Shown: one piece after another, positions 6,488-53,029 of the stretch
How positions within the stretch are numbered: position 1 is the stretch's first letter
How the letters are laid out: every line of letters starts with the position of its first letter
Sequence record: MW650886.1
Origin: Escherichia phage vB_EcoM-ZQ1
Length of the DNA stretch: 64,000 nucleotides
Strand: one strand, 5' to 3'
The notes under the pieces: generated by a model
The model's database searches: none
What the model saw: the letters and a program-made list of their open reading frames with translations, nothing else
What the model was told of the DNA's origin: nothing
Made by a program: the position numbers and the translations under genes

Positions 6488-6823
6488 TTATTTTTGAACT
6501 TGGGCTACAGACATCGCCCAGAGCGGGAGGGTGTGGGGGTCCAGGGCTTCCAGTAGATATTCGACGCGCTCTGACATGATACCTTCAGGGAAGTTTACTT
6601 CTTCTGGTTCGTTGTTGGCCGTCCAACCCAATGTCAGTCCTTCAGCGTGATGGATGATATAAACGAAGTCGTCTGGTTCGTAGTCCTTTTCCATCAGGGC
6701 GAAGAAATCTTCCATTTCTTCGTCGGAGAAGTAGTAGATGCGAGGTACAGAGCCGTCAGCAAAGTGCTCAGCACCCTGGAAGGCAAACATGTCATCGGCG
6801 GTGAAGTTCTTGAGTTGTGTCAT
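6488..6823 (-). CDS. hypothetical early protein (111 aa)
   Basis: ORF with conserved leader ...GGAACTATATC-ATG and upstream early promoter. Confidence 0.55.
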   Translation of the reverse strand: MTQLKNFTADDMFAFQGAEHFADGSVPRIYYFSDEEMEDFFALMEKDYEPDDFVYIIHHAEGLTLGWTANNEPEEVNFPEGIMSERVEYLLEALDPHTLPLWAMSVAQVQK

Positions 6824-6871
6824 GATATAGTTCCTGCTTTTCAAGTTGGTGTCGTACTGCTTATGGAATGA

Positions 6872-6900
6872 AGTATAGGAAAGGATATTGAAGAAGTAAA
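6872..6900 (-). promoter_or_regulatory. T4-type early promoter (-35 TTTACT, -10 TATACT)
   Basis: TTTACT - 16 bp - TATACT on minus strand; same cassette as at 39977 and 50705. Confidence 0.5.
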
Positions 6901-6914
6901 GGGGCGAAAGCCCC
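6901..6914 (-). terminator. stem-loop terminator
   Basis: ggggcgaaagcccc hairpin flanked by T-rich sequence. Confidence 0.45.
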
Positions 6915-6929
6915 TTTTATTGAATTATT

Positions 6930-16285: not shown

Positions 16286-16414
16286 TTTCTTCCTCCTATG
16301 GGATTCGCCTATAGTTTACCCGATCCCCAAGAACGAAAAAGCCGGAGCATTGTACTCCGGCTTTCTCTTTTGCCATGCCCTGTAATGCAGAGCCTGGCCG
16401 CGCGTCAGATAGAA

Positions 16415-22187: not shown

Positions 22188-22216
22188 ATAATAGGACATT
22201 CCTTAGAGGAAGTAAA
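22188..22216 (-). promoter_or_regulatory. T4-type early promoter (-35 GTTTAC, -10 TATTAT)
   Basis: GGTTTACTT - 17 bp - TATTAT. Confidence 0.5.
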
Positions 22217-22228
22217 CCCCTAAAAGTA

Positions 22229-22254
22229 AAAATCCCCAACGTTTGTTGGGGATT
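22229..22254 (-). terminator. stem-loop terminator (42-bp repeat copy 1)
   Basis: aaatccccaac-gttt-gttggggattt hairpin. Confidence 0.5.
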
Positions 22255-22269
22255 TAATAAAAGTTATGC

Positions 22270-22543: not shown

Positions 22544-22572
22544 ATAATACGCATTTACATTATAGAAGTAAA
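22544..22572 (-). promoter_or_regulatory. T4-type early promoter (-35 GTTTAC, -10 TATTAT)
   Basis: GGTTTACTT - 17 bp - TATTAT. Confidence 0.5.
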
Positions 22573-22584
22573 CCCCTAAAAGTA

Positions 22585-22610
22585 AAAATCCCCAACGTTT
22601 GTTGGGGACT
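22585..22610 (-). terminator. stem-loop terminator (42-bp repeat copy 2)
   Basis: ccccaac-gttt-gttgggg hairpin. Confidence 0.5.
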
Positions 22611-39644: not shown

Positions 39645-39926
39645 TTAGAACAAATGCTCGCCTTCCACATGGTATGCTAACACGCCGTCAGAACATTCAA
39701 AATACATGTTATCATATTCCCACAGAGCGGTGATTTCTTCACCCTGGCAAACCACCGAAAACTTCGGCTGGCTGGCCTTAACTGGAAATTTTTCAGGGGA
39801 AGAGATTGGGGTGAATTTGGCATTTCTGACGGCCATACCAACAAATTGCTGCAATGTTACTTTGTAACGAGAGTGGGTGATAGTGCCAGCATTCAGGGCT
39901 TCGATCAATTGCGCTTTAGTTGTCAT
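39645..39926 (-). CDS. hypothetical early protein (93 aa)
   Basis: conserved leader ...GGAACTATATC-ATG and early promoter. Confidence 0.5.
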   Translation of the reverse strand: MTTKAQLIEALNAGTITHSRYKVTLQQFVGMAVRNAKFTPISSPEKFPVKASQPKFSVVCQGEEITALWEYDNMYFECSDGVLAYHVEGEHLF

Positions 39927-39976
39927 GATATAGTTCCTTCATTTCAGAGTCAGTGTTGTGCTGCTTATGGAATGAA

Positions 39977-40009
39977 GTATACGGGGTTTATTGAAGAAGT
40001 AAACCCCGT
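39977..40009 (-). promoter_or_regulatory. T4-type early promoter within a 10-bp-stem hairpin (PeSL-like)
   Basis: TTTACT - 16 bp - TATACT; -35 lies in hairpin acggggttta / taaaccccgt. Confidence 0.5.
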
Positions 40010-40028
40010 ATTCAACTTTTTATTGAAT

Positions 40029-41022: not shown

Positions 41023-42495
41023 TTAGTTCAAGACATATTTGATCAGTCCACAATTCCAAATCCTGACCAACCCGGCTTCGGTTGCTAACTGGCTTTCTGT
41101 TTTGCCTTCTACGTCATACCCCATGCGAGCAAATGAACCTTTTCTGAAACCGAATTTGTGCTCACGCATAAATGTGCCAGGCTTGTGATATTTGTAGTCT
41201 GGCTTCTGTACTTCCTCTTCTACGAATCCGTGGGATAGGTAAATGTTGGACAACCTGCTTACAACACACCTATCCCCAAAGGAATAGATTTTGGTGTCGG
41301 CAAATTTTCTTCTGAAGTGTGAAAGAAGTTTACTGAATGCCCCGTGGCAATCATTAGAGGCAAATCTGACTAATTCCAGGCCATCTTTCCTTTTAGTGAA
41401 TAGCATCACGGCTTGTATGACCTCACTCTTGTCAATTAACGACAAATGGTGGGTAGAAGAAACGGAACCTTGTATGTGGTGGTTGTCTAAAAACTCCCTC
41501 AAGCCGCTTATATTCCCCCAAACGACTTTGTGTTGGCGAGCATATGACGCAGGCGTTTTAATGCCAAGTTTAGCTTTCAGAAGAGATTTTACCACTTCCT
41601 GTTTCTCAACCCATTCATCTTCCCAGATGTGGACCAACTGGATACCCTGAGATTCACATATTTCAGTCTTTTCCAGGTGATAATGTTTCTCTTTAAAAAC
41701 TTCTGAATGCCAGTACAGGCCATTAAATTCAATCGCCAATTTGTGTTCAGGGCAATAGATATCCAGTTGTTTACCGGATAATATACTGTAATCAGAAACA
41801 GTGTTTACAACTCCCATTGAGGTGAGAAACTCGGATATTTCCTTTTCATAAGAAGATTTCTTGTTCCTGATAGAACCATTGCTGAACAACGCACGTTTTA
41901 GTATGTTCGAGTTTTTCATAGGGTTGTCAACACCATAACGTTCTTGTAACGTTGCCAACGCCTTCTCCCTCACACCAGGTAATTGTAGTGTGGAGCAGCT
42001 TCCGTATTTGGATATATTCGAAGTCTCTATGGCTTTCCGACCAATACCACCTTTACACATAGAAACCTGATAACATTCTTCAGAACAATATGTTCTGTAA
42101 TCTTTATTATTGATGTAAAAGTTGGTTTCCTTGGAACACACCGGGCATATTTTCACGGTTCTATTGTACATCCAAGCTGTGACTTTACAAGCCAAATCTT
42201 GTAGGGTGTTGTGGGCATTGGCGAACACTAAAAGGTCTACATTGATGTGCTTCATAAGCAGTTCAGATTTGCATTTTTGGATATCCAATTTGTTGTTCTT
42301 GGTAAACATATATTTGTAGAAAAATTGGCGATATGATTCCTCGTCAGACAATTCATTCACTGCTTCAAGGAAACCTTCCGGGAGGTTCTTTAGGGTGTTC
42401 GATGCGAAGGTCTTGCAAGCATCTGAACAAAATTTCTTATCTTTCCTGGATGCTTTGAACTGTTCATGGCAGACACTACAGATTACCTGATACAT
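41023..42495 (-). CDS. free-standing homing-endonuclease-like protein (Zn ribbons, YGV..PMK repeats, Vsr/DUF559-like nuclease domain)
   Basis: Cys clusters, repeated KYGVDNPMK-type modules, AIEFNGLYWH ... HIWEDEW C-terminal domain; paralog of 48475..50274. Confidence 0.6.
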   Translation of the reverse strand: MYQVICSVCHEQFKASRKDKKFCSDACKTFASNTLKNLPEGFLEAVNELSDEESYRQFFYKYMFTKNNKLDIQKCKSELLMKHINVDLLVFANAHNTLQDLACKVTAWMYNRTVKICPVCSKETNFYINNKDYRTYCSEECYQVSMCKGGIGRKAIETSNISKYGSCSTLQLPGVREKALATLQERYGVDNPMKNSNILKRALFSNGSIRNKKSSYEKEISEFLTSMGVVNTVSDYSILSGKQLDIYCPEHKLAIEFNGLYWHSEVFKEKHYHLEKTEICESQGIQLVHIWEDEWVEKQEVVKSLLKAKLGIKTPASYARQHKVVWGNISGLREFLDNHHIQGSVSSTHHLSLIDKSEVIQAVMLFTKRKDGLELVRFASNDCHGAFSKLLSHFRRKFADTKIYSFGDRCVVSRLSNIYLSHGFVEEEVQKPDYKYHKPGTFMREHKFGFRKGSFARMGYDVEGKTESQLATEAGLVRIWNCGLIKYVLN

Positions 42496-42556
42496 AATTA
42501 TTCTCCTCCATATGGTATCTAGTATAACCTGTTCGATAATATGAACAAATAAAAAC

Positions 42557-42572
42557 CCCGCCGAAGCGGGGT
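42557..42572 (-). terminator. stem-loop terminator (identical to 50768..50783)
   Basis: ccccgccgaagcgggg hairpin flanked by A/T tracts. Confidence 0.55.
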
Positions 42573-42600
42573 TTGTTTAGGGTTAAGGACAACTGTTCTA

Positions 42601-43932
42601 TTAGAACAGGCCTTTGATCAGCCCTTTACGGAAATATACGTTGGTGTCCTTGGCGATACCATCCGCAGTCACATAGACCTGTGGATCCTGGTTCGCTGGG
42701 ATCTGAACGAATGGGTTAGCACAAATCCCGTAGCGGGTCTTGAATGCCATACGTGGTGCGAAGGTGGTTTCACCCTGGGTGCGGTACATTTCCAGCGGTA
42801 CATACGGTGCGAAGAAGATACCAGCGTCCAGTGCGGTTGCGCCTTTGTATGCTAGGGTGATGTATTCTGCTACTGCATACGGGTCGATGTAGACACGCAT
42901 ACCGTTAGACAGCACACCAGCGAAGGTCTGACCAGTCGGATCAATCGCCAGCTTGGTGTTTTCCTGCAGCGCCGGAGCATAATCCAGCATGCCGGACATC
43001 GCCAGAGCGGATGCTACGTTCGGGGAGCACAGAACACGGTTGCCTTTACCACGACGGGTGTCAACACCGATGCCGTTCGCTTCAACTTCCAGCATGAAAG
43101 TCATGTACTTCCATTTTTCCAGCGCCCAACGACCGGAGATGTCAGTGGAGATGTCTACGATACCGTTGGTGCCGAATTTTTTGAAGCGTACTGCGCTGAA
43201 GTTCATGGTGCGGATAAACTCACGGTTCATCTCTGCCTGAATTTCAGTTACCATCACGTCGGACAGGATGCTGTCAACGTCTTCGCCGTGGATCGCCATC
43301 ATGTCCTGGCGCAGTTCGTGGCTGTAGTCAGCGTACAGGCCGCGAGACTTCGCAGTCACGGTTGCTTTCTGAACGGTGATACCAACACGTGCCCATGGGT
43401 TGGTGGTGGTGCCCAGCAGTTCAGCGTCGGAGGTTGACATGCCTTTACCGATGGTGGTGGTAGCAGCGCCGGAACCTTCGATTTCAGTCTGGGAGAAGCC
43501 AGATGGGTCGCCAGCCTGTGCAGTATCGTCACCGGAGTAACCGGAGTTGGCTTCGTTCATGAACAGCTCAGCGCGGGACTGGGCAGTGTTGGAGCCGTCT
43601 GCAACGCCCTGGCGAGCACGCAGTGCGAAGATCTGACCGTCAGGACCAGACAGCGGCTGAACGCCGAAGAAGTCCATCGCGATGTTGACCGGAGCCAGAC
43701 GTTTGGCCATGTCGATCAGGACTGGCTGCCATTTGCCCACAGAGGCGTTCACGGAGCCAGGAGCGTCGGATTCGCCCAGGTTTTTGGCGTTCCACTCAGC
43801 CTGGTTTTGCAGCAGACGGACGGCAACGTTTTCGGCAGAAAGCGGCTGGATGCTTTCAGATTCTTTCTGAAGAACTGGCAGCCACTGCTCGCGCATTTGT
43901 TCAGTAACAAGTTTCTTAGCCATGATGGTCAT
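42601..43932 (-). CDS. 23: major capsid protein, gp23-like
   Basis: 443-aa ORF at the end of portal-protease-scaffold-capsid T4-order module. Confidence 0.7.
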   Translation of the reverse strand: MTIMAKKLVTEQMREQWLPVLQKESESIQPLSAENVAVRLLQNQAEWNAKNLGESDAPGSVNASVGKWQPVLIDMAKRLAPVNIAMDFFGVQPLSGPDGQIFALRARQGVADGSNTAQSRAELFMNEANSGYSGDDTAQAGDPSGFSQTEIEGSGAATTTIGKGMSTSDAELLGTTTNPWARVGITVQKATVTAKSRGLYADYSHELRQDMMAIHGEDVDSILSDVMVTEIQAEMNREFIRTMNFSAVRFKKFGTNGIVDISTDISGRWALEKWKYMTFMLEVEANGIGVDTRRGKGNRVLCSPNVASALAMSGMLDYAPALQENTKLAIDPTGQTFAGVLSNGMRVYIDPYAVAEYITLAYKGATALDAGIFFAPYVPLEMYRTQGETTFAPRMAFKTRYGICANPFVQIPANQDPQVYVTADGIAKDTNVYFRKGLIKGLF

Positions 43933-44014
43933 TCCTTACATTGATATTCAGTTAAGTTGAAATTAATTAGTAGTTCAAAATCAAGCCCCCTTTCGAGGGC
44001 TGTGGCTGCTAAAA

Positions 44015-44866
44015 TTAGCCGTTGATGCCGAAGCGACGATTATAGTCGGCCAACTGACGCTTGATAGATTCTTTCAGCTCTTTGTCTGTTTCATCTTCAT
44101 CGTCATCTTCATCGCCTTCTTTCTTAGGCTTTTTGCCTTCGGCTTTAACATCTTTGTTGTCGTCATCGCCGTCTTTACCGCCGACTTTGTCCTGGAAGTC
44201 ATCGTCATCGTCATCGCCTTCTTTCTTCACGGACTTACCTTCTACCAGGTTGCGGAAGGTGTGTACGCGGGAAGCGAATTCGCTTTCGGTGGTGAACTGC
44301 ACAGCTTCCAGCAGATTGACAACCGTTGCTTTCTTGGTGTCGACCATACCTTCACAGACACGGGCGATCACAGAGTCACGCAGAGTCGCATTCGCGGCTT
44401 CTTTGATTTGACGGTTTTCGCTTTCGGCAATCGCAGCACGTCGTTCTGCTTCGGTCAGGCGGGCAGTCAGCGCAGCGATCTGGCCGTTTTCGTCGGTGGC
44501 AAAGTTGATACCAGCTTCTTTCAGAACACCAGTCAGGCCAGTCAGCAGATTTTCAGCCGCTTCACGTTTGATCTGAGCATCGATTGCAGGAGCGTTCTTG
44601 TTAGCCCACTCTTCTACAACAGCATTCAGGAAGCCATCGACTTTGGTCGCGATTTCCATCAAGTGAGACTCTTTCAGCTGAGCAATCTCAGCCTGATGAG
44701 CTTCAACCAGACGCAGGCGCTCAATGTTGGCAGCGTTTTCGGTTTCTTGAATAGCGGTCAGGCGAGCGGCTTCTACTTTAGATTCCAGCAGACCAGACAC
44801 TTTATCCAGGAAGTCGGTGCTGAGGCCGTTAACGCCCTCAAACAGTTTTTGCAATTCAGGTTTCAT
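44015..44866 (-). CDS. 22: prohead scaffold protein, gp22-like
   Basis: helical, highly acidic C-terminus; position between protease and capsid genes. Confidence 0.6.
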   Translation of the reverse strand: MKPELQKLFEGVNGLSTDFLDKVSGLLESKVEAARLTAIQETENAANIERLRLVEAHQAEIAQLKESHLMEIATKVDGFLNAVVEEWANKNAPAIDAQIKREAAENLLTGLTGVLKEAGINFATDENGQIAALTARLTEAERRAAIAESENRQIKEAANATLRDSVIARVCEGMVDTKKATVVNLLEAVQFTTESEFASRVHTFRNLVEGKSVKKEGDDDDDDFQDKVGGKDGDDDNKDVKAEGKKPKKEGDEDDDEDETDKELKESIKRQLADYNRRFGING

Positions 44867-44893
44867 GATTGTTTCCTTCTGAACGATTTTCAG

Positions 44894-44900
44894 TATTTAG
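44894..44900 (-). promoter_or_regulatory. late-promoter-like motif CTAAATA
   Basis: CACTAAATACTG ~26 bp upstream of scaffold ATG. Confidence 0.4.
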
Positions 44901-44911
44901 TGAGGCTGAAT

Positions 44912-45580
44912 TCAGCCCAGATGTTTCAATGCGATATCGAGGCGGCGCAGGAAGTCGTCTTCTAACTGAATATTGGTTTTCACCAATGAATCGACCACAT
45001 GCCCCTTAATGTCCTTAGGAACCCAAATTCCTGAAGATTCATCAAGCTGCCATTCCACAGATTCGCTCACAGCCTTTACATAACAAACTTGTCCAGAAGG
45101 ACGGTCGACTGCATCAACAGCAGTGAGCATAAAGCCGGGTTGAACGTCATCATAGCCGTTCACTGACTTGGTCTCACCAAGGCCACGTGTAGACACGGCC
45201 AGGTTGAAGTCTGCTTCAGCCAGAGCACGAATGATCTGACCTTTCGGTGTATTCAGGATCCGCGCTCGACCGATAGCGTTGGTGCCTTCCCAGCGCAAAG
45301 ATTCGGTTTTGAGTGCAGCGTGTTCGATATCGGGGAAAGGATAATCCGGATGCTTGAGTTCACCGATTGCACGACGATCCTGGATATACTCTTTGTCGTA
45401 TGCTTCGACAGCAGGGATACCCACCTTTTGGAGATCGTAGTTGCGACCATTACGGTTCACCTGGTTACACATCACGAATGGACCTTCGATGTACATGGCT
45501 TTGCCGCCAGTAGCCGTGGCCGCTTCACCAATCTGAAGGTCTTTCCCTATCGCAGTGATCTCACGCAACAGTTTCATCAT
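44912..45580 (-). CDS. 21: prohead protease, gp21-like
   Basis: VNRNGRNY matches T4 gp21 KNRNGRVY; size 222 aa. Confidence 0.75.
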   Translation of the reverse strand: MMKLLREITAIGKDLQIGEAATATGGKAMYIEGPFVMCNQVNRNGRNYDLQKVGIPAVEAYDKEYIQDRRAIGELKHPDYPFPDIEHAALKTESLRWEGTNAIGRARILNTPKGQIIRALAEADFNLAVSTRGLGETKSVNGYDDVQPGFMLTAVDAVDRPSGQVCYVKAVSESVEWQLDESSGIWVPKDIKGHVVDSLVKTNIQLEDDFLRRLDIALKHLG

Positions 45581-45587
45581 TCGCTCC

Positions 45588-45893
45588 TTAACTCAGTCCC
45601 ATCATACGACGGAACTTCATTGCTTTTTTCTTACGACGCTCGATTTTGCGTTGGTATCCCATACCCATGCGTTTCTTGGCTCGGATCGCCTTGCGGTTGC
45701 CCAGCTTGCGGGTACGGCGCTCACTGGCAACCATCACCTCACAACGGGAACCATCCGCAGACAGTTTGAAACCAGGAGCACACTGCAGACGGCGACGGCG
45801 TTTGCCTTTTGCGTTCACCTTGTCAATGACTTTCTGCTCATCCATGCGGGAAGCCAGGAAATCAGCGAACGTTGCAACTTCTTCGATTTCCAT
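45588..45893 (-). CDS. basic prohead-core-like small protein
   Basis: Arg/Lys-rich 101-aa protein between portal and protease genes. Confidence 0.45.
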   Translation of the reverse strand: MEIEEVATFADFLASRMDEQKVIDKVNAKGKRRRRLQCAPGFKLSADGSRCEVMVASERRTRKLGNRKAIRAKKRMGMGYQRKIERRKKKAMKFRRMMGLS

Positions 45894-45905
45894 GATACAT
45901 TCCTC

Positions 45906-46082
45906 TTACTGGTCGTCGCCGAAAGGTCCCATGTCTTGGCTCAGGGAGTTCAAGACATATTCAGTACCCTGCTGGACCAGTTCTTGGGCGCGAGCGGACA
46001 ACTCCATTTCGCATTCAGCAGCAGCGGCATCAGTATCACCAGCGATGATTGCTTTTACCAGATCGATAGCAGCCATGTTCAT
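45906..46082 (-). CDS. small acidic prohead-core-like protein (58 aa)
   Basis: internal ATG with GAGGAT RBS; position as T4 gene 67. Confidence 0.35.
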   Translation of the reverse strand: MNMAAIDLVKAIIAGDTDAAAAECEMELSARAQELVQQGTEYVLNSLSQDMGPFGDDQ

Positions 46083-46113
46083 ATCCTCTAAATGTTTTCT
46101 ATACTTAGTCGAA

Positions 46114-47808
46114 CTATTCTTCACCACCAGGAGGGTTAGTCGCTGGGATGACGTTAGGTCTGAATTTCAGTGGACTGACTTCCCCGCTGCCGAAGCCGCC
46201 GGACTCATCTGCCTGCACTTCAGGGTATTTGCCTTCTTTCTTCTCTTTCGCGATCTTCTCTTGCTGGTCTTTGATGTCTTCATCGGACATACGCAGCAAA
46301 TTGCGTTGAGCAAAATCGATAGAGAAGAGAGTGCCGATATATGGTTCGATCTGACCGAGAGCCGCCATACGCTGTGACAAGATTTCGTTCTCTTGTTGTT
46401 CACGGATGAAGCTGTCAGAAGTGAATTCGAACTTGACGAACGGCTTGATCTTCTCATTCCAGTCAGCCTGATCTGTAATGCCTTTCAATATCAGTTGACG
46501 GCGCAGAAGTTCCAGGAATATACCAGAAGAATAACGACGGCGCAGGCTCGCACAGAACTTGTTGAAGCGCAGTTCTTCCTGTGTGATTTCAGCAAGATTG
46601 GAACCACCGATGTTGATGGAACCTTCCTCTTGCAGGCGGCTCTTAGGGATCATCAGAGCCTCGTAGAGCTTCTCGCGGAAGTATACCACATGATCCATTT
46701 GACCCAGTTGATCGCCACCGCCTACGTTGGAGATCTCGGTTGCGTTCTGCCCTTCGCGACGTGGTAACCAGTAGTCCTCAGCGATACCCATCAAATGAGT
46801 GTTACCAGCCACCTTACCAGTGGTGCGATCATACGCCAGACGGTTCTTGAATTTGCCCATCATGGCTTGCATGTATTCTTCGGCCGACTTCTTACCCAGC
46901 GTACCCACGTCGAGATAGAACGCTCGCTTCTCAGGAGCACGTGTGATCGCATAGATCACTGTTGCATCTTCAGTTGTAACAAGGTTGTTCAGGGGACGGA
47001 TAGCTGGGTTCAGCAGGCTTGGTACAACCCCATTCGCCAGAGGCTCTTCACCACTGTCCAGATACACTATGCTCTCATCATCAAACACCAGCTCTTGCTG
47101 TGACGGTTGGAAGTTCTGAGACGTACCGGACTGGCCAGTGAATTGGTTGCGGTTGTAGTTCGGGTTGTAGTAGTATTGAAGTTTTACGTCATTGATGACT
47201 TCGATACCGTCGCGCATCGCCTTTTGAACGATGTATACAGGACGGATACAGCGTGAGTCCATCATGATGAGTTTGGCGATACCCGCTTTCTTGTTCTTCG
47301 GGTCCACTACAACGTGGAATGCCTGACGGCCTTCAATATACCATTTGCGGATCTTCTGATACGCTGTGTTGTCAAAGTCAAGGAGATGCATGATCTCTTT
47401 GAATGCGTCAGTGATCTTCTCTTTGACTTCGTCTGTGATGCCATCTACCTTTTCCAGGTTGATGGTTACAGGAGTCTCTTCCTCTTCACAAGTGACGACG
47501 TCGTTGACAATGATATCCACAGCCTTACGAATCTCAGGCTGCTGAGCCATAGACTGGTACTCTTCGACCAGCTGTTTGACGTTGAGCAACTCATTCTCAA
47601 CACCAACGAAATTGAATGTGTTCGCGCCGCCCTGGAGGATGATGGAACCATCCTGAGAATCGTCCAGCGCAACAACAGTCGCTTTTGAAAGCAACTTCTC
47701 TTCTTGGTTCGTGACCATCTTGTCGGTATCAATCGGCGCTTCTACTTTGCCGCCTCTACCGAACAGGCCGAAGAACCCATTTCCGAATGCACCATTACCG
47801 AATGCCAT
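46114..47808 (-). CDS. 20: portal protein, gp20-like
   Basis: 564-aa ORF in T4-order position. Confidence 0.65.
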   Translation of the reverse strand: MAFGNGAFGNGFFGLFGRGGKVEAPIDTDKMVTNQEEKLLSKATVVALDDSQDGSIILQGGANTFNFVGVENELLNVKQLVEEYQSMAQQPEIRKAVDIIVNDVVTCEEEETPVTINLEKVDGITDEVKEKITDAFKEIMHLLDFDNTAYQKIRKWYIEGRQAFHVVVDPKNKKAGIAKLIMMDSRCIRPVYIVQKAMRDGIEVINDVKLQYYYNPNYNRNQFTGQSGTSQNFQPSQQELVFDDESIVYLDSGEEPLANGVVPSLLNPAIRPLNNLVTTEDATVIYAITRAPEKRAFYLDVGTLGKKSAEEYMQAMMGKFKNRLAYDRTTGKVAGNTHLMGIAEDYWLPRREGQNATEISNVGGGDQLGQMDHVVYFREKLYEALMIPKSRLQEEGSINIGGSNLAEITQEELRFNKFCASLRRRYSSGIFLELLRRQLILKGITDQADWNEKIKPFVKFEFTSDSFIREQQENEILSQRMAALGQIEPYIGTLFSIDFAQRNLLRMSDEDIKDQQEKIAKEKKEGKYPEVQADESGGFGSGEVSPLKFRPNVIPATNPPGGEE

Positions 47809-47842
47809 GATTAAGTCCTCAACATTTTCTTGTAATTAGTGA

Positions 47843-47861
47843 GGGGGAATAAAGATCCCCC
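47843..47861 (-). terminator. stem-loop terminator
   Basis: ggggga-ataaaga-tccccc hairpin after tail tube gene. Confidence 0.45.
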
Positions 47862-47874
47862 AGCACTGAGGACA

Positions 47875-48408
47875 TTAGAGAGACTTGTCTGAAATGGCCT
47901 GGAAGTAACGCAGGTCAACAGTGAACTGAGTATAAGAGTCCATTGCAGACATGTCCAGTTCCAGCTGACCGAGGTTCTGAGGCCAGGTGCCCTGAAGGGT
48001 CCAGGTCTTGGTGACGTTGTCATTCGCATCCAGCAGTTCCATGATTACATCACGGAAATAATCATCTGGGTTAGCAGACGCACGGTTGTTGTTGCTACCG
48101 TTGATATACTGCTGCCAGACTTCGAATGCGTTGTACGGGGCGTTGTCCACGACGTTGATGAACGTCACAGGCAGAGCCTCGAAGCGGCGGTCACCTGGGA
48201 ATGGAAGTTCACGACCACCCCATGGGACGAGTATTTCCCCGAGCTGGCCTGTTGGGGTATTTGTGGTCACTGCCAACAGCGAAACATCACGGATAGTATC
48301 GCTTCCAGCCACGAAGGAAGGGAAGTTAACAGTCACACGCCAACGGTGTTGGCGCTGAACGCCGCCCCCGCGTGACATAGCTGCTCTGAATTCATTAACT
48401 GTAGCCAT
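47875..48408 (-). CDS. 19: tail tube protein, gp19-like
   Basis: 177 aa; C-terminal TWPQNLGQLELD resembles T4 gp19 LWPTNVGELQLD. Confidence 0.7.
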   Translation of the reverse strand: MATVNEFRAAMSRGGGVQRQHRWRVTVNFPSFVAGSDTIRDVSLLAVTTNTPTGQLGEILVPWGGRELPFPGDRRFEALPVTFINVVDNAPYNAFEVWQQYINGSNNNRASANPDDYFRDVIMELLDANDNVTKTWTLQGTWPQNLGQLELDMSAMDSYTQFTVDLRYFQAISDKSL

Positions 48409-48430
48409 GGTCGTTCTCCTCTGAATAGTG

Positions 48431-48441
48431 TAAATATTTAG
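48431..48441. promoter_or_regulatory. palindromic late-promoter-like element TAAATATTTA (bidirectional)
   Basis: reads CTAAATA on minus strand toward tube gene and GTAAATA on plus strand toward the endonuclease gene. Confidence 0.4.
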
Positions 48442-48474
48442 TTTTGAAATAAATGGGGGTTAAAATACTCCAAA

Positions 48475-50274
48475 GTGAGGATATTTATTATGCCATTCCC
48501 CGATAAAAATTGTTCATGCTGCCACAAACCGTTCACCCCAACCAGGAAGGCTGCGTTGTATTGTAGTGACGAATGTAAATCATTCATGCTGGGAACGATG
48601 AAACGCAATCCGAGTTTGTTGGATAACATCCCGACGACCGAAACCGAATGCCGCTCTTGGGTTGATAGTAAACTCAGGAAGAAAGATGGTTCGTTGAACT
48701 ACAAACTTATCTCTCATCCCCTACTCACGGCCCATACTGGGGTTGATGTTGTTGGATACGTGGTGTCACACAACGACCTATTAGAAGAACCACAAGCGAT
48801 AACTGCTTGGCTGTACGATATTCCGAAGTCGCAGTGTGTCACTTGCGGTGCTGACGTTGGCTTAGAAATGGAAGCCCAACCACCCAGATACAAAAAGTTT
48901 TGTTCCGAAGAATGTCAACGAGAATCGATGAAGGCGGGAGGCTCAGAACGGACCAACCTAGAAAGCGCCATATCAGAGAAATATGGCGTTTCTAGCACAT
49001 TCCAGCTGGAAGAAGTAAAACAAAAGTCACGGGAAACTGTCCTTAAGAAATATGGGGTCGACCACCCTATGAAGTCTGATGTTATAAAGGACAGAGTGGC
49101 TGCTTCCGTCATGGAACGCTATGGCGTATCACACGTCATGAAAATGCCAGAAGTGAGGGAAAGGGTGATTGAGACTTGGAGGAAGATCTATGGTGTGGAT
49201 CATCCAATGTTCCTCAATTCCATTATAGAAAAGAGAAAGAAAACATGCGTCTTAAAATATGGGGTTGATTATCCGTTGAAGGTAAAGGCTATATGGGATA
49301 GAAGCCAGGTCAATACCAGGATCATTTCAAAAGAAAAATACGGCGTACCTCACTATTTCTCTTCTGAAGAATATAGGAACTCTTTCACGTACCCCAGCAG
49401 CCAAAGCCAAACACAGCCAGAAATAGAAATATGTTCATATCTGGAGTCATTGGGCGTTATATGCGAATCTGGTAATTTCTCCATCCTCAGAGGTAAAATG
49501 TTCGACGGAAGGGTGACCACACGCCAGATAGACATATACTGCCCAGAACATAAGTTGGCAATAGAATTTAACGGCTTGTACTGGCATACAGAGAAACATC
49601 GATACAAAGACTACCATCTTGAAAAGACCATGTACTGTGAAGCCCAGGGTGTTCAATTAATCCATATCTGGGAAGATGAGTGGCGTGACAAACGGGAAGT
49701 GGTTAAATCACTCCTTAAAGCAAAATTGGGGATAGGGAAACCATTGTCATACGCTCGCCAACATACCATTTTAGAAGGCTCCTATAGGACGTCCAAGGAC
49801 TTTCTCGACCGATTCCATATACAAGGTGGTGTGGTGGCGACAGATTATATACACCTTGTAGACAAAACTGGGAATATCCAGGCGGTGATGTTGTTTACCA
49901 AACGAGTGCATGGTATTGAATTGGTGAGATTTGCTTCTAACAATTGTCATGGCGCATTCTCACGCTTGCTGAAATATTATATCGCTCGACATCGGGGTGA
50001 GACAGTATATTCTTTTGGTGATCGTTGTGTTGTCAGTCGTCTGAAAAATGTTTACCTGAATAACGGATTTGTTGAAAAGGAAATCCTTCCCCCTGATTAC
50101 AAATATGTGACTCCGGACTATGGCTCACGTATACACAAATTCAATTTCAGGAAAGAGAAATTCCTTAAACTTGGATACGATGTAGAAGGTAAAACAGAGG
50201 ATATGCTGGCGATAGAAGCCGGGTTGGGGCGTATCTGGGGGTGTGGTCTTATCCGGTATGAACTGGAAAACTAA
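48475..50274 (+). CDS. free-standing homing-endonuclease-like protein (paralog of 41023..42495)
   Basis: plus-strand gene inside minus-strand tail module; same Zn-ribbon, YGV..PMK repeat and Vsr/DUF559-like domain. Confidence 0.65.
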   Translation: MRIFIMPFPDKNCSCCHKPFTPTRKAALYCSDECKSFMLGTMKRNPSLLDNIPTTETECRSWVDSKLRKKDGSLNYKLISHPLLTAHTGVDVVGYVVSHNDLLEEPQAITAWLYDIPKSQCVTCGADVGLEMEAQPPRYKKFCSEECQRESMKAGGSERTNLESAISEKYGVSSTFQLEEVKQKSRETVLKKYGVDHPMKSDVIKDRVAASVMERYGVSHVMKMPEVRERVIETWRKIYGVDHPMFLNSIIEKRKKTCVLKYGVDYPLKVKAIWDRSQVNTRIISKEKYGVPHYFSSEEYRNSFTYPSSQSQTQPEIEICSYLESLGVICESGNFSILRGKMFDGRVTTRQIDIYCPEHKLAIEFNGLYWHTEKHRYKDYHLEKTMYCEAQGVQLIHIWEDEWRDKREVVKSLLKAKLGIGKPLSYARQHTILEGSYRTSKDFLDRFHIQGGVVATDYIHLVDKTGNIQAVMLFTKRVHGIELVRFASNNCHGAFSRLLKYYIARHRGETVYSFGDRCVVSRLKNVYLNNGFVEKEILPPDYKYVTPDYGSRIHKFNFRKEKFLKLGYDVEGKTEDMLAIEAGLGRIWGCGLIRYELEN

Positions 50275-50276
50275 AA

Positions 50277-50292
50277 CCCCGCCTCAGCGGGG
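50277..50292. terminator. bidirectional stem-loop terminator
   Basis: ccccgcctcagcgggg hairpin between convergent genes. Confidence 0.5.
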
Positions 50293-50299
50293 TAAACTA

Positions 50300-50656
50300 C
50301 TATTTGCGAATGCTAACCTGAGCATAATACACATAATAATCACCGTGGGCACGGAAGCTGGTGAGGTGGAAGGTGACGAGGTGGCTCCCGAAAGCTACAA
50401 CTTTGGTATCTGGGGAGCATAAATCATTAGCTAGTTCACCCAGAACCTTACCACAAAACTCCCCAACAATAGCGTTAAATCTGTCAATGTGTGGACTGGT
50501 CACCGTCATTGGACCAACATCTGCACAGTAGATCCCTTTTATCATCTTTCCCTGGCTGTCGCGTACTGGCTTTGCAGGCTGGTAAGGATTGATGCGGCGT
50601 TTCAGGTTACAGAGGCCGATTTCTTTCAGGATAGCGTTAATTTCGGTCTTGGTCAT
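50300..50656 (-). CDS. hypothetical early protein (118 aa)
   Basis: conserved leader ...GGAACTATATC-ATG and early promoter. Confidence 0.5.
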   Translation of the reverse strand: MTKTEINAILKEIGLCNLKRRINPYQPAKPVRDSQGKMIKGIYCADVGPMTVTSPHIDRFNAIVGEFCGKVLGELANDLCSPDTKVVAFGSHLVTFHLTSFRAHGDYYVYYAQVSIRK

Positions 50657-50704
50657 GATATAGTTCCTTCGTTTCAAGTTGGTGTCGTACTGCTTATGTT
50701 TAGA

Positions 50705-50733
50705 ATTATACGTGAGTTATTGAAGAAGTAAAG
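50705..50733 (-). promoter_or_regulatory. T4-type early promoter (-35 TTTACT, -10 TATAAT)
   Basis: TTTACT - 16 bp - TATAAT. Confidence 0.5.
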
Positions 50734-50767
50734 TAATTCAATAAAATAATCTGGGAAAAATTTAAAA

Positions 50768-50783
50768 CCCCGCCGAAGCGGGG
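50768..50783 (-). terminator. stem-loop terminator (identical to 42557..42572)
   Basis: ccccgccgaagcgggg hairpin. Confidence 0.55.
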
Positions 50784-50788
50784 TCTTG

Positions 50789-51091
50789 TTACACTTTGCT
50801 GTATTTCTTAAACAATTTACCGAGTTCACCTGGGGCTTCTCGAGTTCCAGCAGCTTTGCTAACAACCTGTTTATCTTTCTTCAGGTCGAATACTTTGATC
50901 TCTTTGCCATTATATGTATATTCAAAATCATCAATGGTTATGCGGAAGAAATCTCCAAATACTCCATTTTCGATATCACCCTTTTTGAGCCTTACATCTT
51001 GGTCTTCCAACCATTCAATCACGGAGTCTTTAACTTTCTGAAGGTCACCTTTTAGGCCTGCTTCTGCTAAAAATTGAGAAAAACTTTTCAT
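50789..51091 (-). CDS. hypothetical protein (100 aa)
   Basis: ORF with GAGG RBS directly after sheath terminator. Confidence 0.45.
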   Translation of the reverse strand: MKSFSQFLAEAGLKGDLQKVKDSVIEWLEDQDVRLKKGDIENGVFGDFFRITIDDFEYTYNGKEIKVFDLKKDKQVVSKAAGTREAPGELGKLFKKYSKV

Positions 51092-51102
51092 AACAATACC
51101 TC

Positions 51103-51120
51103 AATGTGCCCTCCGAAGAG
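51103..51120 (-). terminator. stem-loop terminator
   Basis: tgccctc-cgaa-gagggca hairpin downstream of sheath gene. Confidence 0.45.
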
Positions 51121-51133
51121 GGCATGGAGTAAA

Positions 51134-53029
51134 TTAAGAAGCGGCTACGATACCACCACCAGTTTCGATCTCGCTGAACTCCATGTCCGGACGTACCGCA
51201 GCAAAGTCCAGATACACCCAGTTGATGGAGTATTCTGGTTTCAGCCAGATACCCGCGACCATCTGGTTCGCAGCGATAACATCAGCGGTGTTGTTGTCCT
51301 CGTCACACTTCACCATCCCGTCATAGATCGCGCCCATGTTGGCCAACTGGCGGATATATGGGCGGACAGCGTTGCTGAACAACCCACGAGTGAATGCATC
51401 GTTGTTCTCACCAAGGTAGTATTTGGCGATGGCTGCGATGTTCTGTTCTGCCATAATGAACAGACCACGAACGTTGATGCGGTCGAACGCAGATGGGCGG
51501 GTCAGGCCAGTCTTGTCGCCGTACAACACGATGCCTTCGTTGGAGAAGGTGACGATGCTGTTGATCTGGTTGCGATACAGCACAGCACGCTCATCAGAAG
51601 ACGCAGACCACGCCATTCGATTATAGTTGTTGTATTTACCACGGTTGTGGAACGCTGGAGACTTGTAGATACCCGCGATTTCAATGCTTCGCGCCCAAAC
51701 ACCTGCGGTGCCGCCACAAGCCGGAATCCAACGCATTTTGTCGTTGTACTTGTCGTACACATACGCCCAGTTGTCATCCATGAAGAAGTAGGAGGAGTCG
51801 CGAACAAGGCTTTCACGCCAGGCCACAACATCATCCATCTCACGGCCACGGTTTCCGACGACCGTATCGCGAAGAGGAGACACGAAGGACACTGTGTCTT
51901 TACGCTCAGTGGACAGGTCGATCAGTGCCTGCTGCTCAATCAGTTCTTCACAGAAACCGAACACTGGCTTGGCATCATACGCTTCGGCGTTGTTCAGTGC
52001 CTGGATAGCCGCAACACGGTTCCCAGTGTAATCGTCTACACCACCTTCGAGTTCAATGACACCAGCAGCCAGGGTAGTGGCGAAGGTGTACACCCAATTT
52101 GAGGTGTCGTTGATCACGTCTTTGAAGTACGCATTGGATCCATCAGATTTCTTAGAACCCTGAGCGGTCTGCACCAGTTCATACTTCTCGATGATCGTAC
52201 CGGAAGCACCAACAGTGGTGACGGCAGCGGTAGCAGTCAGACCATTCGCGTCTGGAACAATCGCAGTCGCAGCCTGAGGACCGATTGCTTTGTGAGTGAC
52301 GGTGACGGTGTTGGACTTCACGACAACAGAAGAATACACTTCAGACAGGGACGTCAGCGCAGTTCCGATCTTTGTCGCCAGAGTCGCCGGGGTGTCAGCG
52401 TCAGTGTACGCCACGGCTTCACCAGCAACAGAGATGGAACCAGCAGCGGTGGCAGTACCGGATACAGAGATACGATCAACCTGGCTAACAGCACCAGAAG
52501 AGTCGGTGATGCGACCTACTTTGTCAACGATGGCGATATGGTACTCGCCATCCTGCGGAGCATATGCGAAGTTGTTACGGAATTCCCAGGTCGGGAACAG
52601 CGCAGCGTCACAGATGTTCACAGCAATGTCGTTACCCAGAGAGCCAGCATAGCGGCCTGTCCAGGTAATAGACGCAGATGGAGACGCAGTTTCGAAGTCT
52701 AATTTGTTGCGGATAAGGATTGCAGTCTGACCTTTGGTTACAGCGTTGCGTGCCGCCGGACCGACCACACGGGTCACCCATGCAACAGAGCTGTAAGACA
52801 GGAAGTCAGCAATCACTAAGAAGTCGGTGGCAGTTGCATCGTTTGGCTTGAAGAATTTCTTCACCAGACCAGTTTCGCCACCAGTGACCAACACAGGGAG
52901 TTCTGCTTCACCCCATTGGAATTTGCCGACAGTCGCACCCTGAACAACAACGGATGGAGACGTCTGAAGCGTGGCATCACGCTCAGTCCACTGTACGGAC
53001 GGCGCAACGCTGAAGCTTTGAGTTGCCAT
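51134..53029 (-). CDS. 18: tail sheath protein, gp18-like
   Basis: N-terminal GKFQWGEA matches T4 gp18 GKFQWGPA; 631 aa; start at internal ATG 53029. Confidence 0.8.
   Translation of the reverse strand: MATQSFSVAPSVQWTERDATLQTSPSVVVQGATVGKFQWGEAELPVLVTGGETGLVKKFFKPNDATATDFLVIADFLSYSSVAWVTRVVGPAARNAVTKGQTAILIRNKLDFETASPSASITWTGRYAGSLGNDIAVNICDAALFPTWEFRNNFAYAPQDGEYHIAIVDKVGRITDSSGAVSQVDRISVSGTATAAGSISVAGEAVAYTDADTPATLATKIGTALTSLSEVYSSVVVKSNTVTVTHKAIGPQAATAIVPDANGLTATAAVTTVGASGTIIEKYELVQTAQGSKKSDGSNAYFKDVINDTSNWVYTFATTLAAGVIELEGGVDDYTGNRVAAIQALNNAEAYDAKPVFGFCEELIEQQALIDLSTERKDTVSFVSPLRDTVVGNRGREMDDVVAWRESLVRDSSYFFMDDNWAYVYDKYNDKMRWIPACGGTAGVWARSIEIAGIYKSPAFHNRGKYNNYNRMAWSASSDERAVLYRNQINSIVTFSNEGIVLYGDKTGLTRPSAFDRINVRGLFIMAEQNIAAIAKYYLGENNDAFTRGLFSNAVRPYIRQLANMGAIYDGMVKCDEDNNTADVIAANQMVAGIWLKPEYSINWVYLDFAAVRPDMEFSEIETGGGIVAAS

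Follow-up and report, generated by a model that had tools for sequence, protein, structure and literature searches.

The window, i.e., the whole 64-kb stretch of DNA that was analyzed, belongs to a phage of the Ackermannviridae (Aglimvirinae, Agtrevirus-like, ViI-like) with its structural genes on the - strand. It was 96–98.6% identical to Escherichia phages LHE287, A221, PC3, and AV101, and approximately 87% identical to Dickeya phage LIMEstone1; a further, nearly identical relative is the IMG/VR contig IMGVR_UViG_3300045988_107072. Along the - strand, the tail sheath gene (gp18) is followed by the hairpin t2, ORF100, the hairpin T2, a promoter, ORF125, the hairpin T3, and the homing endonuclease gene HE2, which lies on the opposite strand. 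Past HE2, the order continues with the tail tube, portal, prohead core, protease, scaffold, and gp23 genes, the hairpin T1, and a second homing endonuclease gene, HE1. HE1 and HE2 correspond to F-LimVII and F-LimVIII of LIMEstone1 (PMC3296691). The convergent ORF125 (-) and HE2 (+) have T3 between them, and the stop codon of HE2 overlaps with the A-tract of this hairpin. The promoter of ORF125 is sigma70-like (TTTACT-16-TATAAT, 50732..50705), with its -35 element 31 nt downstream of T2. Table 1 summarizes the coordinates of these features.

Table 1. Hairpins, genes, and regulatory cassettes discussed in the text (positions in the window).
Feature	Position	Strand	Remarks
T1	42552..42572	-	Reads AAACAAACCCCGC-UUCG-GCGGGG-UUUUUAUUUGUU; hairpin including A-U pairs, 42553-42574
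T2	50764..50784	-	Exact copy; reads AAGACCCCGC-UUCG-GCGGGG-UUUUAAAUUUUU; hairpin 50764-50787
T3	50273..50293	-	Stem as in T1/T2, loop UGAG; U-tract UUUUAGUUUU
t2	51107..51124	-	UGCCCUC-UUCG-GAGGGCA, an alternative hairpin of the family, immediately past the sheath stop codon
Major capsid gene (gp23-like)	42601..43932	-	From the ORF list and relatives' annotation; probably terminated by T1
HE1, free-standing Hef-like homing endonuclease (F-LimVII type)	41023..42495	-	Downstream of T1; phrog_3339, E = 5e-155
HE2, Hef-like homing endonuclease (F-LimVIII counterpart)	48475..50274	+	phrog_3339, E = 4e-191
ORF125, accessory, 118 aa from ATG	50300..50656	-	phrog_13016 (unknown function); bracketed by T2 and T3
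ORF100, accessory	50789..51091	-	Inserted between the sheath stop/t2 and T2
Tail sheath gene (gp18-like)	51134..53029	-	Upstream late gene of the putative T2 transcription unit
Regulatory cassette, copy with ORF125	50652..50756	-	AT-rich stretch, TTTACT, TATAAT, conserved 5'UTR, RBS, ATG
Regulatory cassette, full copy	6819..6924	-	GGGGC-UUUC-GCCCC hairpin abuts the -35; before ORF 6488-6823, phrog_9866
Regulatory cassette, full copy	39922..40027	-	Hairpin encloses the -35; before ORF 39645-39926, phrog_10263

The 21-mer AAAACCCCGCCGAAGCGGGGT occurs exactly twice in the window, at 42552-42572 and 50764-50784, both times on the + strand, and the number of matches expected from dinucleotide-preserving shuffles of the window was 0.00. 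The repetition is real and non-random. A preliminary description of this DNA had reported the identical 21-mer at two places, which was reproduced; its start for the second copy (50764) was right, and the first copy, given as 42553-42573, was one base off. When up to three mismatches to the 21-mer were tolerated, 50273-50293 was the sole addition, with two mismatches that both fall in the loop (CTCA vs CGAA). This near-copy, T3, is absent from the preliminary description. As the exact copies share 0 bp of flanking identity on each side, the repeat is a bare hairpin, and a larger duplication around the 21-mer was ruled out.

On the coding (-) strand, the RNA of the motif reads ACCCCGC-UUCG-GCGGGG-UUUU. 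The exact copies form hairpins of 9–10 pairs with a UUCG loop on this strand, and the stems of T1–T3 consist of six G-C pairs and one to four A-U/G-U pairs around a 4-nt loop. The hairpin free energies were -15.5, -16.5, and -12.8 kcal/mol for T1, T2, and T3, respectively, and the minimum free energies of the 66-nt contexts of T1 and T2 were -19.6 and -18.9 kcal/mol. The hairpins stayed intact when T1–T3 were folded within contexts of 61–66 nt, for which the fold z scores against shuffles on the - strand were -4.1, -3.3, and -1.6; that of t2 was -3.1. In a terminator scan of the window, T2 was the best match and T1 the second, and T3 completed the three best. A U-tract stands directly 3' of each stem on the - strand (UUUUUAUUUGUU at T1, UUUUAAAUUUUU at T2, and UUUUAGUUUU at T3). 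Each of the three hairpins is intergenic and lies just past a co-oriented stop codon, at a distance of 29 nt for T1 (capsid), 2–4 nt for T2 (ORF100), and approximately 6 nt for T3 (ORF125). In the case of t2, the window has no U-tract, and the RBS and start of ORF100 come next.

Thus, the features found at the motif are those of an intrinsic terminator, namely, a G+C stem-loop, a U-tract, the position, and a structure kept with compensatory changes. On these grounds, the 21-mer is very probably a Rho-independent terminator at two operon ends of this Agtrevirus-like Ackermannviridae phage. The earlier statements that the hairpin ends the capsid gene and that the second copy precedes an early cassette agree with the terminator-type fold of T1 past the capsid stop codon and with the location of T2 upstream of a small gene with a sigma70-like promoter. 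On the + strand, the U-tract is fair at T1 only and poor at T3; since T1 alone has a usable one, bidirectional termination by T2 and T3 is doubtful. Membership in a known class of structured RNA was ruled out, as Rfam gave sub-threshold matches only (RsmY, rsmX, P9, and Leu leader; 22–26 bits vs cut-offs of 43–57). The terminator ends of those models seem to account for these matches. A literature search for transcript 3'-end data from Ackermannviridae returned none.

The complete genome of LHE287 (149,485 bp; 97–99% identical) carries the exact 21-mer twice, at the same two syntenic sites as the window. The stem CCCCGC-N3-8-GCGGGG was found at 6 of approximately 45 terminator-like sites of this genome, and five of these six sites follow late structural or accessory genes on the - strand. 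The preliminary description had reckoned that a terminator present at dozens of sites would not be specific to the head-tail segment; the genome-wide count in LHE287 is two, so that ubiquity of the 21-mer within the genome was ruled out.

The conservation of the hairpins was evaluated with 35 IMG/VR loci around capsid homologues, among which 24 Ackermannviridae loci served for the post-capsid hairpin. The stem CCCCGC/GCGGGG follows the capsid gene in 22 of these 24 loci, with diverged flanks, and the loops of the 22 are UUCG, CGAA, CAUGU, CAUAU, or UCCG. The two exceptions are L023, which carries GCCCUC-UUCG-GAGGGC, and the more distant contig L025, which carries an unrelated stem-loop. After the sheath gene, a hairpin stands directly behind the stop codon in every genome examined, being of type T, of type t2, or of a third type. 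Type t2 (GCCCUC-UUCG-GAGGGC) occupies the post-sheath position in 10 of 23 locus maps, including one imperfect copy, and the third type (CGCCCC-UUCG-GGGGCG) was met in one case. Across the hairpin types, 92% of the stem cells pair and four of nine pairs change on both sides, vs 40–58% pairing in slid controls. Judged from these pairing patterns, selection acts on structure at the post-capsid and post-sheath positions.

The stem has the same primary sequence in different genera, without drift by compensatory changes. This invariance goes beyond structural need and may point to homogenization by exchange or to a sequence-specific partner. That the hairpin was brought along by a homing-endonuclease cassette was ruled out, as post-capsid and post-sheath hairpins are present in genomes without those endonucleases. 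Moreover, the loop type of the post-capsid hairpin tracks the upstream, capsid-side flank and not the downstream module; accordingly, the hairpin is not carried by the endonuclease cassette.

Outside this phage group, the exact 21-mer was found in at least 120 IMG/VR stretches. Among 80 matches examined, 73 had no nucleotide similarity to the window, with GC contents of 33–66%, and the tails of the IMG/VR matches are T-rich past the four T fixed by the search pattern. With a 34-nt query around T1, look-alikes were found in each of the 5,426 complete E. coli genomes, at a median of 10 places per genome, counted in unannotated intergenic DNA. The reading of the 21-mer as a repeat specific to the head-tail segment did not survive these counts. 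From its distribution, the 21-mer is best described as a generic, repeatedly evolved terminator design, and since it is present in many unrelated viruses, the identity of T1 and T2 needs no copying event.

T1 and T2 could also be identical by descent, if a recent duplication or gene conversion had copied one of the terminators to the site of the other. In favor of this, neither site varies in its stem sequence from genus to genus, and the hairpin "alleles" T and t2 swap as whole units, without drift. However, the flanks of T1 and T2 share nothing, and the 21-mer also arose in dozens of viral contigs that are unrelated to this phage. The loops vary independently at the two sites, e.g., a post-sheath UUCG occurs together with a post-capsid CAUGU or CGAA, which speaks against T1 and T2 evolving in concert. 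Common descent of the two copies is thus considered improbable.

The preliminary description further suggested that the repeats, together with inverted endonuclease paralogs, could support recombination around the portal-capsid region. In that case, T1, T2, and the paralogs would form a substrate by which the 8.2-kb portal-capsid segment is deleted, inverted, or amplified. No exact repeat spanning the segment is longer than the 21-mer pair, short homologies are usable by T4-type recombination systems (PMC2839356), and UvsX, UvsY, and gp46 homologues are annotated in LHE287. However, T1 and T2 are direct repeats, so exchange between them would delete the tube, portal, protease, scaffold, and capsid genes, and the product would not be viable alone. 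Each of the 22 related loci covering the block keeps the order and orientation of the sheath, tube, portal, and capsid genes, as do LHE287, PC3, and LIMEstone1; LHE287 also keeps the 21-mer pair at the same sites, unrearranged. No deletion, inversion, or duplication bounded by T1 and T2 was found in the 22 spanning loci, LHE287, PC3, or LIMEstone1.

In the case of the endonucleases, the protein identity of HE1 and HE2 is 41–42%. At the DNA level, the best inverted arms measure 128 nt (76% identity) and 62 nt (82%), and the longest exact run common to both genes is 14 nt. The paralogs were therefore ruled out as a recombination substrate. Rearrangement of the head-tail block by exchange between T1 and T2 is unsupported by these comparisons and appears very improbable, as constant synteny and the direct orientation of the repeats speak against the recombination that had been proposed.

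Regarding the function of the hairpins as terminators, the late genes would be transcribed through the motif by the core of the host RNA polymerase. In the relative LHE287, gp55-like and gp33-like late-factor genes are annotated, and a phage RNA polymerase is not among the annotated genes. With host RNA polymerase and factors of the gp55/gp33 type, intrinsic terminators would be the expected stop signals. The RNA design is A-rich/ACCCCGC-UUCG-GCGGGG/UUUU(U), i.e., a 6-bp G+C stem with an A-U extension, a C(UUCG)G loop, and a U-tract. Presumably, once the hairpin has folded in the exit channel, the weak rU:dA hybrid comes apart and frees the transcript. As a stable 3' structure, the hairpin may also shield the capsid and sheath mRNAs, which are abundant, from 3' exonucleases. 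T1 would end the major capsid transcript, and T2 would end the transcript of the sheath gene (with ORF100) and insulate the early-type promoter of ORF125, whose own transcript would end at T3. The shared sequence of T1 and T2 would then be a near-optimal generic terminator, repeatedly reached and kept by selection. The hairpins mark the fixed 3' edges of conserved late modules, with accessory DNA gained or lost immediately beyond. The accessory DNA seen beyond the hairpins comprises homing endonucleases and small promoter-ORF cassettes.

The C(UUCG)G tetraloop is very stable and is found in T4 intercistronic hairpins and in E. coli terminators. Hairpins with this loop were reportedly described in T4 intercistronic regions by Tuerk et al. 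in 1988 and are said to have been found in E. coli terminators by d'Aubenton Carafa et al. in 1990. They resemble the present motif in the C-G-closed UUCG on a G+C stem, in the intergenic terminator position, and in the stability of the tetraloop. The window copies belong to a different phage family. A review of post-transcriptional control in T4 contained no passage on UUCG terminators. Phage T7 has a strong hairpin terminator, T-phi, directly after its major capsid gene 10, which acts on T7 RNA polymerase. Both T-phi and T1 are located directly after the most highly expressed structural gene, whereas T-phi has another sequence and T7 RNA polymerase as its target, the presumed target of T1 being the host polymerase core.

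Closer counterparts are annotated in related phages. In LIMEstone1 (HE600015), 31 rho-independent terminators were reported (Adriaenssens et al. 2012, PMC3296691). Its GenBank record lists a "putative factor-independent terminator" after gp23 with a sequence identical to T1, and a terminator with the loop CAAA between F-LimVIII and the sheath gene, which is the equivalent of T3. In the GenBank record of Salmonella phage Mutine (MG428992), two terminators surround the ORF125 homologue, including a site homologous to T2. The terminators of LIMEstone1 and Mutine share the stem of those in the window and occupy the same positions, namely, past gp23 or between the genes for the sheath and the Hef-like endonuclease. 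Nothing essential differs, apart from two additional accessory genes of the window, ORF100 and ORF125, which separate the sheath gene from the ancestral hairpin and as a result of which two or three hairpins are present there. The terminator feature is already known, as GenBank records of related phages carry such annotations at these sites. Consequently, the finding itself carries little weight, as a routine terminator whose duplication is the expected reuse of a near-optimal hairpin. Its lesson is that identical 20–25-bp G+C hairpins with A/T tracts should not be taken as segment-specific repeats.

The hairpins were also compared with the borders between conserved and variable DNA. In the comparison with PC3, a block of 98.6% identity extends from 42546 to 50784, i.e., from T1 to the last base of T2; thus, the similarity of the window and PC3 breaks at T1 and T2. 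Past T1, PC3 carries a different endonuclease and the loop CAACGU. Past T2, the window has ORF100, which is absent in PC3 and A221, and Klebsiella phage Magnus, a Taipeivirus and hence of a different genus, matches ORF100 together with T2 at 96% identity. The spacer between the sheath and tube genes ranges from 81–82 bp to 2.7 kb among relatives, and at least five kinds of insert occur in it, among them GIY-YIG and Hef-like endonucleases as well as ORF100 and ORF125.

Relatives carry ORF125 as an intact unit or not at all. The layout of LIMEstone1 is sheath, hairpin, HE2, and that of Mutine and the window is sheath, hairpin, promoter-ORF125, hairpin, HE2. In Mutine, the hairpins around the ORF125 homologue share an exact direct repeat of 27 nt. 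In Klebsiella phage Menlow (L028), the promoter and an ORF125 homologue (55% identical) are located between two T-type hairpins at the post-capsid position. Module borders of ORF100, ORF125, and the HE1 variants coincide with hairpins, a coincidence expected even without a mechanism of the PeSL (promoter-early stem-loop) type. HE2 is internally deleted in LHE287 and in the related locus L026, and the deletion in LHE287 is not at a hairpin. As a modest conclusion from these layouts, it is the closely spaced pair T2 and T3, not T1 and T2, that flanks a non-essential, apparently mobile promoter-ORF cassette, with hairpins marking the module borders. Elsewhere in the window, two 44-bp repeats (22209-22252 and 22565-22608) have an ORF between them.

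The promoter of ORF125 forms part of a regulatory cassette of approximately 105 nt, which consists of an AT-rich stretch, TTTACT-16-TATAAT/TATACT, the 5'UTR CATAAGCAGTACGACACCAACTTGAAA.GAAGGAACTATATC, and ATGAC. Three full copies are present in the window, all on the - strand and each with a hairpin at or before the -35, and LHE287 has approximately five full or near-full copies and some partial ones. The copies are alike up to the ATGAC start and then diverge. The ORFs behind them were ruled out as paralogues, as they belong to three different PHROGs (phrog_13016, phrog_10263, and phrog_9866).

This arrangement resembles the PeSLs of T4-type phages, for which termination, promoter activity, and recombination into mini-circles have been demonstrated (Arbiol et al. 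2010, PMC2839356; Comeau et al. 2014, PMC4122927). Common to both are a terminator stem-loop, an AT-rich stretch, a sigma70-like promoter, an SD, and an ATG, as well as the repetition before unrelated small ORFs and, possibly, the association with indels between relatives. The -35 (TTTACT) and -10 (TATAAT/TATACT) elements of the window fit the PST/T4 PeSL consensus TTTACW...TAYWAT, with a spacer of 16 nt vs the published N17. T2 itself fits the PeSL layout, as its hairpin end at 50764 is followed by the AT-rich stretch and the promoter. However, the cassettes of the present phages number only approximately five full copies per genome, and their adjoining hairpins differ in sequence.

Accordingly, the hairpins and the cassette might act as PeSL-type linkers, i.e., as short homologies for excising, inserting, and moving accessory cassettes by homologous recombination, possibly through mini-circles. 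We regard this reading as possible but rather unlikely. In its favor, T2 and the 105-nt cassette together have the PeSL layout, repeated before ORFs of three PHROGs, and both the definition of PeSLs and the mini-circle experiments are published (PMC2839356, PMC4122927). Mutine and the window differ from LIMEstone1 by the promoter-ORF125 cassette and one extra hairpin, Menlow has the same promoter and ORF125 homologue post-capsid instead of post-sheath, and the break of the PC3 block at T1 and T2 and the 96% match of ORF100 and T2 to a Taipeivirus point in the same direction. However, accessory genes are expected beyond terminators under any insertion mechanism, so the coincidence of borders is weak evidence, and co-conversion with homing endonucleases or ordinary recombination in the flanking conserved genes gives the same patterns. 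Moreover, T1 and T2 flank essential genes, the product of an exchange between them appears in no relative, and 21 bp is close to the minimum length at which homology is useful.

As a modest by-product of the analysis, a conserved terminator/promoter composite was found to recur in front of small ORFs that are unrelated to each other, and single accessory genes were found between short exact hairpin repeats. The repeated composites and the hairpin-flanked accessory genes suggest that PeSL-style modular shuffling may operate outside T4-type phages. More specifically, it can tentatively be proposed, at a low level of confidence, that Ackermannviridae possess a small PeSL-like system in which terminator hairpins of the ACCCCGC-UUCG-GCGGGG type, joined to the conserved early-promoter/5'UTR cassette, serve as portable linkers. 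By recombination between hairpins or between cassettes, perhaps through mini-circles, ORFan cassettes such as promoter-ORF125 would be inserted, excised, and relocated, both from one terminator to the other (post-sheath and post-capsid) and from one genus to another. If true, the PeSL mechanism would be extended to Ackermannviridae from the T4-type (Straboviridae) phages, the only group for which it has been described so far; a literature search found no paper linking PeSLs with Ackermannviridae. In the case of T1, no cassette lies behind the hairpin in the window, but the homologous hairpin of Menlow does have one.

The gap that separates the tail sheath gene from the tail tube gene (48409-51133 in the window) is a family-wide insertion hot spot. 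Its length varied between 81-82 bp and 2.7 kb across the family, and it carried at least five different types of insert. The segment at 50763-51126, which comprises the small accessory gene ORF100, its upstream hairpin and the terminator hairpin T2, shared 96% identity with its counterpart in the Taipeivirus Magnus, a Klebsiella phage, where an ORF100-type block occupies the equivalent gap and adjoins a GIY-YIG endonuclease gene. As this identity far exceeded that of the neighbouring core genes, the sequence comparison points to a recent exchange of ORF100 and its hairpins between genera.

The same gap holds HE2, a Hef-like homing endonuclease gene. Its 1.46-kb interior (48700-50161) was absent from the close relative LHE287 and from a near-identical IMG/VR contig (L026), in both of which only the two ends of the gene remained. 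HE2 is a decaying endonuclease gene in these two sequences, and the endpoints of the deletion did not coincide with hairpins.

When close relatives were compared, some terminators had unchanged stems but reverse-complemented loops. For the terminators at 16335-16367 and 22230-22255 of the window, set against 85985-86017 and 91127-91152 of LHE287, the loops read TACAATG vs CATTGTA and AACAAACGTT vs AACGTTTGTT, and the loop of the post-capsid hairpin was UUCG vs CGAA between relatives (L013 and L024 at 11351). Such loops on constant stems look like small hairpin inversions, for which template switching at the palindrome is possibly the source. In the case of the relative PC3 (L001, 4020-4090), the post-capsid hairpin retained its stem with a 6-nt loop (CAACGU). 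Beyond this hairpin lies a distinct and longer endonuclease gene, the promoter region of which (ATATAATTCTAAA) resembled the -10 region (GTATAATTCTAAA) of the cassette of ORF125, another small accessory gene.

Two further repeated elements were found in the window, as listed below.

Repeated elements carrying promoter-like motifs
Element	Coordinates	Strand	Context
Conserved cassette, ~105 nt, 3 copies	6819-6924, 39922-40027, 50652-50756	-	Precedes 3 unrelated small ORFs
Exact direct repeat, 44 bp (TCCCCAACAAACGTTGGGGATTTTTACTTTTAGGGGTTTACTTC)	22209-22252, 22565-22608	-	Flanks one small ORF

The cassette consists, in order, of an AT-rich stretch, a -35 element (TTTACT), a -10 element (TATACT/TATAAT), a 5'UTR, an RBS and ATGAC. 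All three copies carry a hairpin, located either at the -35 element itself or upstream of it. This layout corresponds to that of the promoter-early stem-loops (PeSLs) of T4-type phages. The ORFs behind the cassettes were assigned to phrog_9866, phrog_10263 and phrog_13016, and LHE287 carried about five full or near-full copies. In one cassette, the -35 element lies between the arms of an inverted repeat of 14 pairs (ATACGGGGTTTA...TAAACCCCGTAT, 39979-40011), the 3' arm of which extends into the -10 element (CCCCGTATACT); this may be a regulatory arrangement.

In the 44-bp repeat, a hairpin and its U-tract are accompanied by a TTTACT that resembles a -35 element, and the copies are spaced 356 bp apart. 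The preliminary description had proposed that the identical 21-bp terminators could support recombination; the 44-bp pair is a longer candidate for repeat-mediated excision than that 21-mer, and a better placed one. Imperfect 12-nt-phased repeats (TCATCGTCATC...) were also observed at 44085-44228, within the scaffold (gp22-like) gene, which lies on the opposite strand; they probably code for an acidic, Asp/Glu-rich stretch.
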